Assembly (NCBI GenBank): GCA_903893565.1
Contig: CAITMU010000108.1
Span: forward strand, 24,415 to 88,414
Source of the DNA: an uncultured beta proteobacterium
GTDB taxonomy: Bacteria > Pseudomonadota > Gammaproteobacteria > Burkholderiales > SG8-41
Direction: 5' to 3'
Length of the DNA: 64,000 bases
Shown here: positions 3,386 to 63,990 of the stretch, piece after piece
Layout: each line of letters starts with the position of its first letter
How positions within the stretch are numbered: the first letter of the stretch is position 1
Translations under genes and position numbers: made by a program
Notes under the pieces: model-generated
What the model saw: the letters and a program-made list of their open reading frames with translations, nothing else
The model's database searches: none
Told to the model about the DNA's origin: nothing

Positions 3386-3694
3386 TTAGCCCAAATGCTT
3401 ACTCACTAACTTGGTCATCTCAAACATACTCACTTGTTTTTTCCCACCAAATACTTTTTTCAACAAGTCATCGGCATTAATGTTGCGACGATTTTTGCTG
3501 TCTTGCAAATCGTGTTTTTTAATGTAGGCCCAGATTTTTTTAGTCACTTCGGTGCGCGGCATTGCAGCAGTACCAATCACTGCACCCAACTCAGCACTGG
3601 GTTTCATGGGTTTCATGAATGCGGCATTGGGCTTGCGTTTAGCAGCCTTCTTTTTAGCCGGTGCTTTCTTGGTAGCTTTTTTCTTTGCAGCCAT
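3386..3694 (-). CDS. SWIB/MDM2-domain protein with Lys/Ala-rich N-terminal tail
   Basis: 102 aa. The tail is MAAKKKATKKAPAKKKAAKRK, followed by a SWIB-like core (TEVTKKIWAYIKKHDLQD...INADDLLKKVFG...FEMTKLVSKHL). GGAG lies 7 nt upstream of the ATG. Confidence 0.8.
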   Translation of the reverse strand: MAAKKKATKKAPAKKKAAKRKPNAAFMKPMKPSAELGAVIGTAAMPRTEVTKKIWAYIKKHDLQDSKNRRNINADDLLKKVFGGKKQVSMFEMTKLVSKHLG

Positions 3695-55091: not shown

Positions 55092-55280
55092 ATGAATATC
55101 CTTGTCCATCGTCACATTGTTGTCCTCGTGAGCTTATTTTTCTGCTTCTGCCTTACGAATTGTGGCCACAAAACGCCATTGAGTTTACCCAATCCCAGCG
55201 CTGGGCCTAGAACCGTGTCAGCTCCACCCCCTACCCCTCAGCCTCCTCCTTCTTTCGCGCCAGTGCCCCCCTCACCATGA
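55092..55280 (+). CDS. small lipoprotein (LptM/YifL-like) preceding lysA
   Basis: 62 aa. The lipobox LTNC is followed by GHKTPL, which resembles the CG.KGPL signature. The tail is Pro-rich. It overlaps lysA by 4 nt. Confidence 0.55.
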   Translation: MNILVHRHIVVLVSLFFCFCLTNCGHKTPLSLPNPSAGPRTVSAPPPTPQPPPSFAPVPPSP

Positions 55281-56527
55281 GCCCATCGCCCTTTGCTGCC
55301 TCCTCCTTCATGATCGAGGGCATAAGTGCCCTTGAAATCGCCCAGTTGTATGGCACCCCCTGCTACGTTTACTCACGCGCAGCGCTCACTCAGTCGTATC
55401 AGAAGTTTGCCGCCGCCTTCACAACCCACCCTGCCCTCATTTGCTTTGCGGTTAAGTCCAATCCGAATTTGGCAGTACTGAATTTATTTGCCCGACTGGG
55501 CAGTGGTTTTGATATTGTTTCAGGCGGAGAGCTAAGCCGTGTTTTGGCCGCAGGCGGTAGCGCACAAAAAGTGGTTTTCTCCGGAGTAGGAAAATCTCGT
55601 GCTGAGATCACTCAAGCACTCTTGGCCGGTATTTTATGTTTTAACGTTGAATCGGCTGCAGAACTCGACAGAATCAATGAGATTGCTGGCAAATTGCAAA
55701 TGAGGGCGCCCGTAAGCTTGCGAGTCAACCCTGATGTAGATGCTAAAACTCACCCCTACATCGCCACAGGACTCAAAGAAAGCAAGTTTGGTGTCGCTTT
55801 TAACGAAGCCATTGCGCTCTACCAAAGGGCAAAGACACTCAAAAATCTCACCATTAAAGGCATTGATTGCCATATTGGTTCTCAACTAACCGATATTGCT
55901 CCCTTTTTGGCTGCCACCGATCGAGTCTTGGCGCTTGTCGATGCCTTACGCGAGCATGGGATAGAACTTTCTCATATCGATTTAGGCGGCGGCTTAGGCA
56001 TTCCTTACGAAACACACGAGTCTGCCCCTCCGATTGAAAAGTATGCAAGTGCCATACTTGAAAAAATGTCTGGCCGTAAAGAATCTCTGATTTTTGAACC
56101 AGGTCGCTATCTCACAGGCAATGCCGGTTTTTTATTAACTCAAGTCGAATACCTCAAAGAAGGACAAGATCGCCACTTTGCCATTGTAAATGCAGCGATG
56201 AATGACTTGATGAGACCTGCGCTTTACAGTGCGTGGCATGACATTATTCCCGCACAAACTCGAGATCAGCCTGAAAAAATCTGGGACATTGTTGGTCCTG
56301 TCTGTGAAAGCGGCGATTTTCTAGGCCGCTCACGCAGTCTTGCGCTAATGGAGGGCGACTTATTGGTCATTCGCTCTGCAGGCGCCTATGGTATGAGCAT
56401 GAGCTCAAACTACAACACGCGCCCACGCGCGGCAGAAGTCATGATCGATGGCAAGAATCACCATCTCATACGCGAACGCGAAAAGATTAATGATCTTTTT
56501 AGCGGCGAATTTTGTTTACCCTTGTAA
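55277..56527 (+). CDS. lysA: diaminopimelate decarboxylase
   Basis: 416 aa with the PLP Lys motif (FAVKSN), plus GGGLGI, CESGD and GAYG. Confidence 0.93.
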   Translation: MSPSPFAASSFMIEGISALEIAQLYGTPCYVYSRAALTQSYQKFAAAFTTHPALICFAVKSNPNLAVLNLFARLGSGFDIVSGGELSRVLAAGGSAQKVVFSGVGKSRAEITQALLAGILCFNVESAAELDRINEIAGKLQMRAPVSLRVNPDVDAKTHPYIATGLKESKFGVAFNEAIALYQRAKTLKNLTIKGIDCHIGSQLTDIAPFLAATDRVLALVDALREHGIELSHIDLGGGLGIPYETHESAPPIEKYASAILEKMSGRKESLIFEPGRYLTGNAGFLLTQVEYLKEGQDRHFAIVNAAMNDLMRPALYSAWHDIIPAQTRDQPEKIWDIVGPVCESGDFLGRSRSLALMEGDLLVIRSAGAYGMSMSSNYNTRPRAAEVMIDGKNHHLIREREKINDLFSGEFCLPL

Positions 56528-56838
56528 AAATTTTTCGCTAACATCGCATCACGACTCAAAAAAACATCCTTCGAATAAGAAAATAAATCCCTTATTGCTT
56601 TTATATTCGTCTCAAAAATCTTGAATGTTGTACGAATGCGACATAAAAGATCATTTTTATAAAAAAAAGTCAATAAAGTTGTTGCAATTTTTTTATACTG
56701 TGGAATAAAATCCACACACCATGCATGGATTCGTTGTGCATCACGTGTCAAAGCGTGTACGTTCTTCGGTTTATGAATGGTGTTGCGGAAAAATATCCGC
56801 AGCAAAAAATGCCAAAGTTAACTAAAAAGGAGACTCAC

Positions 56839-56904
56839 ATGGCAGCAAAGAAAAAAGCAGCTAAGAAAAAAGTAGCTAAGAAAAAAGTAGCTAAGAAGAA
56901 GTAG
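56839..56904 (+). CDS. 21-aa Lys/Ala-rich micro-ORF (MAAKKKAAKKKVAKKKVAKKK)
   Basis: AAGGAG lies 6 nt upstream of the ATG, and a strong intrinsic terminator lies 13 nt after the TAG. A 15-nt in-frame tandem unit GCTAAGAAAAAAGTA occurs twice. The first 18 nt match the SWIB gene 5' end at 17 of 18 positions. Confidence 0.5.
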   Translation: MAAKKKAAKKKVAKKKVAKKK

Positions 56905-56917
56905 TTGTAGTTTAACG

Positions 56918-56951
56918 ACGGGGACTGGAACTTTCAGTCCCCGTTGTTTTT
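56918..56951 (+). terminator. intrinsic terminator of the micro-ORF transcript
   Basis: ACGGGGACTG-GAACTTT-CAGTCCCCGT, a perfect 10-bp stem, followed by TGTTTTT. Confidence 0.8.
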
Positions 56952-57404
56952 GGTGCAGGCCTCCCCTGCAAGCGCCTCTTCATCTTTACAATCATTCTGA
57001 ATCATTCCTTCAGGGTTTGACCCTAAAGTCTTTTTTTTCAAACTCTGACTCGCCGTCATCTCTTCGGCCTTCATAGCTTACTCTGTATTGCCCTTGATGC
57101 GCCTTTTCGGCTTCGATTGCATTGTGCATAGGCAAGTTATCCTCAGGTCCACCTGATACTGCATCAAATTCATGGGCCTTGGTCTTTACCCTTCGCGTTT
57201 TTTCAGAGGCACGGCCCACTTCAGTTAAGCTCTTTTATGAGTGGTGAAAATCAAAAGAGAACATTTTGGGAGATACTGTTGGGCTTTTCTACCGATGGCC
57301 CCTAGATTAGCAAGGGCTTAAGGGCAAGAAAGAGGCACTCCAACGAAGGCGCGGATGGCAGAAGTAGGTTTCTTGTCATCGGTTGATGCCCGATGCAACA
57401 CCCT

Positions 57405-58847
57405 TCAAACTAAAAACAATGTGGCTAATCCCAGAAAAATAAAAAAACCACCACTATCCGTGATGGCTGTGATCATCACGCTTGAGCCCACAGCAGGGTC
57501 TTTACCCAGTTTATCCATCGTCATTGGGATCAATACCCCCATAAAAGCTGCTAACAATAAATTTAACATCATCGCCAGCATCATCACCAAGCCTAAATGC
57601 CAATTATGGTAGATCAAAAAGGCAAATACACCCACCACTCCACCCCAAATCAAACCATTTAATGCACTCACACTCAATTCTTTAGCAAAAAGCTTTGCCG
57701 CGTTATCACGCGTGATCTGCCCCAACGCGAGCGCTCGAACGATCATGGTAATGGTCTGATTACCTGAATTACCACCAATGCCAGCAATAATCGGCATTAA
57801 AGCGGCTAACGCTACCAATTTGGCAATCGAGCCTTCAAACAATCCGATGACCCTAGAGGCCATAAATGCAGTACAAAGATTAATCGCAAGCCATGCCCAA
57901 CGGTTACGCACGCTCTTCCATACCGAGGCAAAAATATCCTCATCTTCTTGCAAACCGCCGGCGCTCAACATTTCGCTATCGGTTTTCTCGCGCATGTAGT
58001 CAACGACTGCATTGACCGTCATACGCCCTACCAAGGCGCCACTGTCATCCACCACAGGGGCAGAGACCAAATCATAACGTTCGAAGGCAGAGGCCGCCTC
58101 TGCAGCCTCCTCATCGGCGTTAAATTGAACAAACTCACGTGTCATGACCGTACCGACCGTCACGTCCGGGTCCGTTACCAAAAGCCGATTAATGGGCACT
58201 AAACCTTGCAGCTTTTGTTCCCGATCGACAACGAAGAGCTGATCGGTGTGGTCGGGCAATTCATCCAATCGCCTCAGATAACGCAACACCACCTCGAGCG
58301 TGACATCCTCACGGATTTCTACCATATCAAAATCCATTAAAGCCCCTACCGTATCCTCCGGATAGGACATCGCCTCACGCAGTTGTTCGCGCTCCTCAGG
58401 TGGCAGCAAACGAAACACATCGGCAATCACTTCACTGGGTAAATCAGGAGCCAAATCGGCAATTTCGTCGGTATCTAATTGCCCCGTGGCTGCCACAAGC
58501 TCATGATCATCCATGTGCTCAATGAGAGTTTCACGAACCGCATCAGACACTTCCAATAAAATCTCACCGTCCCGATCAGCTTTGACCAAATCCCACAGTG
58601 CCAATCGATCCTTTAGCGGCAAAGCCTCCAGGATATAAGCCACATCGGCCGGATGCATCGGGTCGAGCAGGGCTTGTAGTGAAGCGAGAATTTTTAAGGC
58701 AGCAGTATTTTGATCCCCAGAATGGCTTTGTTCCGGAGTCGCCTCATACCCCAAATCCGTTAACGACTGTCGCTCCTGCAGCAAAGCGGTGACGCGTTCA
58801 AGGGATTCGTAGATGTCGGGGCTATTATGGTTGCGGTCCGTTTCCAT
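57405..58847 (-). CDS. mgtE: magnesium transporter MgtE
   Basis: 480 aa with the MgtE N-domain, a CBS pair and a C-terminal 5-TM domain carrying GNSGNQ and D..G...F. Confidence 0.92.
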   Translation of the reverse strand: METDRNHNSPDIYESLERVTALLQERQSLTDLGYEATPEQSHSGDQNTAALKILASLQALLDPMHPADVAYILEALPLKDRLALWDLVKADRDGEILLEVSDAVRETLIEHMDDHELVAATGQLDTDEIADLAPDLPSEVIADVFRLLPPEEREQLREAMSYPEDTVGALMDFDMVEIREDVTLEVVLRYLRRLDELPDHTDQLFVVDREQKLQGLVPINRLLVTDPDVTVGTVMTREFVQFNADEEAAEAASAFERYDLVSAPVVDDSGALVGRMTVNAVVDYMREKTDSEMLSAGGLQEDEDIFASVWKSVRNRWAWLAINLCTAFMASRVIGLFEGSIAKLVALAALMPIIAGIGGNSGNQTITMIVRALALGQITRDNAAKLFAKELSVSALNGLIWGGVVGVFAFLIYHNWHLGLVMMLAMMLNLLLAAFMGVLIPMTMDKLGKDPAVGSSVMITAITDSGGFFIFLGLATLFLV

Positions 58848-63669: not shown

Positions 63670-63990
63670 TAAAGTGCGACTCAATGATTAGTGCATCGCT
63701 GCCCTTTCAGGCATAAGGTGGGATCTCCCTCAGGTAAGGGCGCACTCCTTCGCTGCACTACCGCCGGATCTACACCCCCTCGCTTTGATCACCAGAGCTT
63801 CGTGGTTTACGGCCCACTCGCCCTGCTTGGCAGTGCCTCGTATCCGATTCTTGTTCATCGGCACACCGTTTATGTCCCACGCTTTCTTCCCACACTCGGT
63901 CACCCTTATGCCGTTGCGCTTCCCTTCGCTCGTCGTGATCAACTTGCGACGGGACTTTCACACGCAGGAGTGCACCCATGCTGCGCGCAC
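63670..63990 (-). mobile_element. probable 5' fragment (domain I) of a group II intron, truncated, no reverse-transcriptase ORF
   Basis: The minus strand starts GTGCGCGCAGCATGGGTGCAC...GTGAAAGTCCCGTCGC...CGAGCGAAGGGAAGC... This gives a GUGCG 5' end and a GC-rich structured sequence reminiscent of bacterial group II domain I. The similarity fades near 63.67-63.70 kb, and only about 600 nt separate it from the upstream gene. Confidence 0.4.

Follow-up and report, generated by a model that had tools for sequence, protein, structure and literature searches.

A conserved lysA-linked oligolysine micro-ORF with a covarying leader looks like a shrunken counterpart of histone-H1-like genes

The closest described counterparts of the element analysed here are the histone-H1-like repeat proteins, that is, chlamydial Hc2/HctB and the Burkholderia/Bordetella type (BpH1, B. 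cenocepacia HctB), and a further comparison is offered by protamines, oligolysines and polyamines, which are unfolded nucleic-acid counter-ions of high charge density that bind by counter-ion release. Tiny polybasic proteins are also found in ribosomes (eL41, bTHX, bS22 and bL37), and these are Arg-rich, ~20–35 amino acids (aa) long, and have conserved non-repetitive sequences. For Hc2, the account in PMC2848022 describes lengths that vary by whole repeats, from 165 to 237 aa. Here, we analysed a stretch of 64,000 nucleotides (nt) from an uncultured beta proteobacterium (the window), in which a 21-codon open reading frame (ORF) that encodes almost nothing but Lys and Ala follows the gene lysA. 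The reading that we favour, with a probability of roughly 0.55, is that this ORF is a genuine micro-gene, transcribed independently and translated into an oligolysine polycation, a counterpart of H1-like proteins that would act electrostatically. This reading draws on the observed conservation of the unit, a coding-type substitution pattern, covariation in the leader, synteny, and the relation to long forms of the gene. The parts of the unit and the gene before it are as follows:

55277–56527, plus strand: lysA (diaminopimelate decarboxylase), with Orn/DAP/Arg decarboxylase Pfam domains
56625–56644, plus strand: candidate regulator site, the inverted repeat ATGTTGTACGAATGCGACAT, conserved in promoter-upstream alignments
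56682–56711, plus strand: sigma-70-like promoter with −35 TTGCAA (56682–56687), a T-rich 18-nt spacer and −10 TAAAAT (56706–56711)
56718–56838, plus strand: 5′ leader of ~121 nt, counted from a predicted transcription start at ~56718
56718–56781, plus strand: leader helix P1, whose 5′-terminal arm (56718–56730) pairs with 56768–56781 around a variable insert
56782–56803, plus strand: leader hairpin P2, directly after P1, UUGCGG..CCGCAG in the window and GUGCGG..CCGCAC in the consensus
56810–56832, plus strand: near-invariant unpaired tract TGCCAAAGTTAACT and then the Shine-Dalgarno (SD) sequence, with the palindrome AGTTAACT at 56816–56823
56827–56832, plus strand: SD sequence AAGGAG, 6 nt 5′ of the ATG of the micro-ORF
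56839–56904, plus strand: micro-ORF of 21 codons plus TAG, product MAAKKKAAKKKVAKKKVAKKK
56914–56951, plus strand: intrinsic-terminator-like hairpin and T run, core stem 56918–56927/56935–56944, T run 56945–56951

The micro-ORF runs from an ATG at 56839–56841 to a TAG at 56902–56904, and its product MAAKKKAAKKKVAKKKVAKKK has Lys at 12 of 21 positions, no acidic residue, a calculated mass of 2.2–2.3 kDa and a net charge of about +12; the form without Met would be AAKKKAAKKKVAKKKVAKKK, with a calculated ~2180 Da versus ~2311 Da for that with Met. Tandem Repeats Finder (TRF) reports a period of 15 nt with 3.7 copies and 95% matches at 56842–56897, and the corresponding pentads of the peptide are AAKKK, AAKKK, VAKKK and VAKKK. 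The GC-rich hairpin begins 13 nt past the stop codon, with arms ACGGGGACTG (56918–56927) and CAGTCCCCGT (56935–56944) that are followed by TTGTTTTT, and its 10-bp core can be extended to a stem of 16 bp. A simple terminator scan missed this hairpin, but folding shows it clearly (free energy −29.8 kcal/mol, z −5.6), and none of 200 shuffled sequences folds equally well. ORF, SD at a distance of 6 nt, hairpin and 15-nt repeat were already described when the DNA was first read without database searches (the sequence-only reading), and all these details are borne out, as is the AT-rich gap after lysA, which measures 311 nt (56528–56838) and has a GC content of 0.33, versus 0.47 in the window. Three further metagenome assemblies of this species, in which LysA is identical, match the interval after lysA at 100%, which excludes an assembly artefact.

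The unit is conserved after lysA in many uncultured Betaproteobacteria. Scanning GTDB species representatives with LysA resulted in 80 loci, all Betaproteobacteria-like and with a best LysA identity of 66%, and an ORF of 14–23 codons lies on the same strand, 241–377 nt past lysA, in 12 of these 80. The ORFs start with MAAKKKA, in one case with MAKKKA, and they are flanked by ..AGTTAACTTT.AAGGAGAC.. on the 5′ side and by a GC-rich hairpin on the 3′ side. A lysA-independent scan of metagenome contigs with a DNA pattern made of the SD and the first seven codons found at least 120 loci and added at least 23 loci of the lysA-linked unit, and a profile of promoter and leader (nhmmer) matched at least 39 loci in all, with E values down to 8e-57. 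Among the matches listed, lysA is directly upstream and co-oriented in all leader-bearing metagenome loci that extend far enough (21/21). As the micro-gene is common to genomes whose LysA is only ~58–66% identical to that of the window, it is old. The proposal of a free-standing unit with the appearance of an expressed gene agrees with the alignment of the lysA-downstream interval in relatives: the ORF is kept at varying lengths of 14–23 codons, and 31 of 32 distinct downstream sequences retain SD, ORF and hairpin together. In these 31, a GC-rich hairpin of 12–16 bp begins 0–13 nt past the stop codon, and its stem sequences differ among relatives while complementarity is kept. The contig of the sole exception (L145, 1–200), which has no hairpin, starts 6 nt past the predicted start of the leader transcript and departs from its close relatives right past the stop codon; chimeric assembly or derivation from a transcript may account for this.

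The substitution pattern is that of a coding sequence. There are 25 distinct nucleotide alleles of 14–23 codons, plus one of 62 codons, and all are in frame, with length differences that are always multiples of three, no frameshift, and no premature stop. The codon-position test was done with the twelve 20-codon alleles and used only the 13 codons outside the searched pattern: variable sites were found at 7/13 third positions, 3/13 second positions and 0/13 first positions (7/13 versus 3/26, Fisher p=0.008). The second-position changes in these alleles exchange A and V at two codons and replace A by G at one, and the residue replacements overall are restricted to A↔V, A→G and A→T, with no Lys replaced by Arg or Glu in any of the 25 alleles. 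TAG and TAA within the repeat unit GTAGCTAAG usually close the other two frames (+1 and +2). Third-position bias, in-frame lengths and the retention of Lys fit selection on the peptide rather than on an A-rich RNA tract. The usage of AAA versus AAG tracks genome GC content, and the AAA-AAA runs, which had been highlighted for their effect on ribosomes, are therefore no conserved feature, albeit present in the window; poly(A) slippage was likewise rejected as a conserved feature, as relatives and GC-rich families use AAG freely. The related expectation of a slippage-prone, length-variable gene holds between species, where lengths range from 14 to 23 codons and always stay in frame, but not within the species, as the repeat number is constant in four assemblies from different samples.

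The region in front of the ORF is conserved at least as clearly. Within 56400–57500, the match at 56682–56711 is the sole promoter-like one, and 13 genome loci share the promoter block TTGCAT-N18-TAGAAT almost without variation, as do the metagenome loci; we infer that it is used as promoter. An inverted repeat ~40–55 nt 5′ of the −35 element reads ATGT-N12-ACAT in the window and TTGTGG-N8-CCACAA or TGTTGC..CACA in relatives, is found at the equivalent position in 30 related loci, and looks like a candidate binding site for a dimeric regulator; a second TGTTGC copy overlaps the −35 element. For the leader, a covariance model (R1) was built, with which the 13 genome loci score 59–145 bits. P1 is seen in the minimum free energy (MFE) fold of the window transcript and in the RNAalifold consensus, and its inner helix has compensatory changes at 6 of 7 pairs. 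In the five-pair helix of P2, every cell of the alignment is paired and two pairs show compensatory changes. Over the whole leader alignment of 31 sequences, 96.7% of the cells are paired, versus 27–48% in slid controls, with compensatory changes at 9 of 16 pairs, and none of 500 shuffles matches the observed pairing. The window transcript folded alone forms the same helices (z −7.1). Between P2 and the start codon, GATGCC..AGTTAACT..AAGGAGA is at least 90% conserved across 31 sequences (alignment A1), and in its RNA form, GAUGCC.AAGUUAACU, this tract is unpaired in the consensus structure. No Rfam match was obtained at E ≤ 1 within 56000–58000, and scanning the whole window yielded no relevant match for the leader at the gathering score. 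The leader is a new covarying RNA motif, one that Rfam does not contain. CsrA-type GGA sites in P2 were considered and dropped, as conservation of the GGA fails in several relatives. Promoter, structured leader and strict lysA linkage had all gone unseen in the sequence-only reading.

The relationship to H1-like genes emerges from the slot after lysA in related bacteria. Loci of Gallionellaceae and Sideroxydans also match the promoter profile, just past lysA and at E 2e-5 to 1e-3, and the slot there holds genes for AKKPAAKK-repeat proteins of 71–189 aa that end in GILGA or GILKA. One of these long forms, with 168 aa, scores 72.7 bits on Pfam HC2 (PF07382, cut-off 40) and 61 bits on NCBIfam hist_H1_lk_Burk (NF038053, cut-off 80). 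The leaders of the long forms start with ACCAAGC, which is paired with ..GTTTGG, and continue with GAGTGCAG..TGCAC, and the box ACCAAGC...TTTGGGAGTGCAG is common to them and a subgroup of the micro-type leaders. The link to Gallionellaceae rests on the promoter profile, this shared box, the position and the LysA tree. The 62-codon allele (L120) combines a full micro-type leader and an upstream lysA with a product of the form MAAKKKA..(AKKPVAKKxx)4..KKKAAKKKVAKK, in which the N and C termini of the micro-peptide flank four AKKPVAKK units. A homologue search with this 62-aa protein gave 2312 word candidates, none of them at E ≤ 0.001, which is probably due to the low-complexity correction. In a neighbour-joining tree of LysA, the loci with micro-forms are one clade in which L120 is nested, and the long-form loci make up its sister clade; the AT-rich window has a long branch in this tree and is placed unreliably. 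The simplest reading is that an ancestor had a lysA-linked H1-like gene whose repeat array collapsed in one lineage and was then kept at 14–23 codons, and the micro-gene thus looks like a shrunken counterpart of an H1-like protein gene. Among the roles first suggested for it, that of a remnant or relative of a histone-like gene comes close to these comparative data, given the long forms in the same slot and the intermediate L120. Peptides of 20–22 aa have no match at E ≤ 10 in Pfam or NCBIfam and stay below the cut-offs of HC2 and NF038053; it is because of its size that the micro-peptide is recovered by no model-based search. In composition it agrees with H1-like repeat proteins, as it consists of Lys/Ala pentad repeats whose number varies.

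From these comparisons, a model of the unit can be proposed, in which the start of transcription, the translation and stability of the peptide, its targets and the role of the leader are inferences. A strong sigma-70-type promoter would generate a ~235-nt transcript from ~56718 to ~56950, in which a structured leader of ~120 nt and a consensus SD lead to translation of the 21 codons, and which would be ended by the terminator. In the leader, the 5′-terminal helix probably serves to stabilise the message, and control or enhancement of translation is the probable task of the invariant single-stranded tract that precedes the SD. The gene would have arisen by collapse of an internal repeat array to the N- and C-terminal Lys/Ala pentads, after which purifying selection would hold its length. 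The product would be an abundant unstructured polycation that binds polyanions—nucleoid DNA, RNA, ribosomes or polyphosphate—electrostatically, much as H1 tails, protamines or polyamines do.

Several points weigh against this model. The coding test is based on 12 alleles, whose sequence is of low complexity, and the leader is conserved more strongly than the ORF, so that the RNA could be the main functional product. Simple electrostatics would account neither for the strict lack of Arg nor for the tight linkage to lysA. Free unstructured peptides of 20 residues are usually degraded fast in the cytoplasm. R1 recovers the long-form Gallionellaceae leaders weakly (E 0.004–0.9), and the micro-peptide has no match in Pfam, NCBIfam, PHROGs or the PDB. 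An exact look-up of nine micro-peptide alleles in a collection of 15 billion proteins found none of them; the long forms and six other short forms are absent from this collection too, and the absence of the micro-peptide therefore says little about annotation. In general, sequences this short and of such low complexity make searches of protein databases uninformative.

Turning to the surroundings of the unit, three further genes are relevant:

57010–57219, minus strand: 69-aa ORF between the micro-gene and mgtE, a gene call in the same-species ENA assemblies
57405–58847, minus strand: mgtE, convergent with the micro-gene
3386–3694, minus strand: SWIB gene (Pfam SWIB, 4e-31), starting with ATGGCTGCAAAGAAAAAA

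In the window and in each of the 11 genome loci that continue beyond the unit, the gene that comes next is convergent; the window and one relative have mgtE there, the others an anti-sigma/extracytoplasmic function (ECF)-sigma pair. The 69-aa ORF has no NCBIfam match, and no Pfam family is recorded for the called gene. On the other side, the stretch from lysA to the micro-gene promoter showed no strong terminator, and the micro-gene hairpin may therefore end lysA transcripts as well. Directly 5′ of lysA, a 62-aa lipoprotein-like ORF (55092–55280, plus strand) overlaps the lysA start by 4 nt and encodes a cysteine after a hydrophobic signal and a Pro-rich tail. The minus strand carries a group II intron D1-D4-3 RNA domain at the window's end (63738–63909; Rfam RF02001, 96.9 bits).

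The SWIB gene had been thought to be the source of the micro-gene, by a partial duplication of its 5′ end. The comparison does not sustain this, as the similarity of 17/18 is confined to ATG GCN GCN AAG AAA AAA, the codons of MAAKKK, and falls to 28/48 beyond them, and as the same start codons recur in many unrelated metagenome genes, including numerous SWIB genes. Given the age of the micro-gene and the limitation of identity to MAAKKK, a recent partial SWIB duplication is unsupported. Ten of the metagenome loci (L096, L099, L105, L129, L135, L144, L151, L158, L160 and L190) encode SWIB-domain proteins with a MAAKKKA..KRKPNAAFMKP tail, and the Lys-rich N-terminal tail is a regular feature of a SWIB subfamily that is common in metagenomes, not a peculiarity of this genome. 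Eight other loci (L130, L139, L162, L164, L174, L183, L091 and L121) carry long H1-like genes of 119–205 aa that start with MAAKKKA; upstream of them, TTTAACTTTCA..AGGAGA resembles the tract before the micro-gene SD, and these loci neither adjoin lysA nor match the leader profile.

The strongest alternative to a peptide-coding micro-gene would be a dual-function or mainly non-coding RNA, in which the ~235-nt transcript is a regulatory RNA that acts via the unpaired tract GAUGCCUAAGUUAACUUU and the ORF is secondary, for example by keeping ribosomes on the RNA. As the leader is better conserved than the ORF, room is left for an RNA function; the near-invariant unpaired tract, the two covarying helices, the small RNA (sRNA)-like size of the transcript with its terminator hairpin, and an ORF full of A-rich ARN-like triplets are in line with it. 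Such sRNAs that also encode a small peptide are a class treated in a review (PMC12612679), and like the unit, they combine a structured non-coding part with a small ORF in a short transcript that has a terminator. However, the conservation of SD, ATG and a codon-position-specific substitution pattern speaks for the ORF, many relatives' hairpins have a short T tail that is poor for Hfq-type sRNAs, and there is no known base-pairing target, link to an RNA chaperone, or Rfam family. Moreover, related leaders precede ordinary protein genes of 71–189 aa in the sister clade. We regard this explanation as unlikely.

It could also be supposed that the ORF senses lysine supply for lysA, in that its translation on lysA read-through or on its own transcript reports Lys-tRNA and feeds back on the lysA mRNA or on itself. 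The complete lack of Lys→Arg exchange in 25 alleles and the absolute lysA linkage leave room for some lysine-related role, and they are accompanied by a content of 50–70% Lys codons, a constant lysA upstream while the downstream neighbour changes, and the missing strong terminator between lysA and the unit. But the sensor would have no output gene, as the next gene is convergent in 11/11 loci, the gap between stop and hairpin is only 13 nt, and the purine-rich ORF has no alternative pairing. The unit also has its own strong predicted promoter, long protein genes occupy this slot in the sister clade, and similar micro-genes elsewhere adjoin unrelated genes. The lysA linkage may be inherited synteny. 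All in all, we consider a lysine sensor quite improbable.

If the micro-ORF were instead a non-functional stump of a truncated H1-like gene, it would persist only since promoter, leader and terminator serve otherwise, for example in lysA termination. The long genes at orthologous positions in the sister clade would agree with this, and so would the 10–20 nt between stop codon and stem in the window (56905–56917) and in relatives (e.g., TTGTAGTTTAA, GTAGCAAGTAGTTAG; GTAGYWRG), which resemble decayed, frame-shifted copies of the repeat unit GTAGCTAAG and would fit a longer array that was truncated long ago. Against it, the 25 alleles keep ATG, SD, frame and Lys/Ala pattern across a deep clade with mostly synonymous changes, and an unselected stump should have decayed at a divergence at which LysA is only ~58–66% identical to that of the window; these intact alleles make a stump very unlikely.

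Finally, a classical attenuator in which a leader peptide controls a downstream gene, as suggested by the likeness to leader peptides of the his, thr, leu and pheA type (a tiny ORF dominated by the codons of one amino acid, here Lys at 12/21, an intrinsic terminator, and an adjoining pathway gene for lysine biosynthesis), is refuted by gene order in the window and 11 genome loci, where the unit sits after and not before lysA and no co-oriented gene follows the terminator, and it further lacks an antiterminator helix, as MFE and centroid folds leave the terminator isolated from the purine-rich ORF, all of which agrees with the earlier view that the unit is no classical attenuator.

Among the matches of the metagenome scan, oligolysine micro-genes are found in settings other than lysA. 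Since the searched pattern fixed MAAKKKA, the shared start of these families is by construction. A gene for MAAKKKAKKKR (11–13 aa) has its own TTGACA-17-TATACA promoter, a leader hairpin CGCTCCGCCAGC..GCTGGCGG, a GGAGGAG SD and a terminator, and occurs in 18 alleles, of which those with 11 codons differ only synonymously outside the pattern, including AGG, AGA and CGG for Arg. Its loci are L090, L101, L102 (7585–7620, plus strand), L111, L133, L142, L150, L155 and ~20 more among the matches listed, and because of the neighbours, which are TIGR03436 acidobact_VWFA genes and a convergent rmuC-like gene, the family is probably from Acidobacteriota. Another gene, for the 18-aa MAAKKKAAKKKAAKKKKQ, is located ~90 nt past the stop codon of nrdJ (NF005736), the gene of a B12-dependent ribonucleotide reductase, with a hairpin GGCCAAAG..CTTTGGCC downstream and a DNA of 63–66% GC that is alphaproteobacteria-like (L092, L127, L128, L168, L170, L175, L178, L181, L188 and L200). 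L188 and L198 have frameshifted or altered tails in micro-ORFs of this type, and several singleton micro-genes are also among the matches listed. Analogous oligolysine micro-genes are thus indicated in at least two other lineages, and it may be, as we tentatively suggest, that free-standing genes for oligolysine peptides of 11–25 residues are widespread in bacteria without being annotated, and that their products form a class of micro-proteins comparable to an encoded polyamine or mini-protamine.

As gene callers skip ORFs under ~30 codons, the micro-gene is unannotated across a whole clade of environmental Betaproteobacteria, and a conserved, probably highly expressed gene would have been overlooked there. 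Searches of the literature for the peptide motifs, for H1-like proteins together with lysA, and for lysine-rich small proteins or small ORFs retrieved no description of such micro-genes, and a Sinorhizobium meliloti ribosome profiling (Ribo-seq) paper does not mention such a peptide. If made in quantity, oligolysine peptides of this class would be a previously unseen component of the charge balance of nucleoid, RNA, ribosomes or polyphosphate. The micro-gene further suggests that an H1-like repeat protein can shrink to ~20 residues under selection, which turns the minimal functional unit of nucleoid polycations into a testable question.

Compared with known systems, the micro-peptide has the small size and extreme positive charge of tiny ribosomal proteins, which are likewise often missed by gene callers, but it is a low-complexity Lys/Ala repeat of variable length, and a test against bTHX, bS22, bL37 and eL41 gave no NCBIfam match and no PDB chain match at E ≤ 10. 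To protamines, oligolysines and polyamines there is a functional analogy in the high charge density and the lack of a fold; in contrast to protamines, the peptide would be ribosomally made from a dedicated bacterial micro-gene and is based on Lys and not Arg. With 14–23 residues, it is far shorter than the H1-like proteins (Hc2/HctB, BpH1, NF038053) of ~70–240 residues and lacks their Pro-containing AKKP unit, and its gene has a structured leader and a strict lysA linkage, of which we know no description for the long H1-like proteins. It shares with them, however, the Lys/Ala pentad composition, the near absence of Arg, and the plasticity of repeat length.

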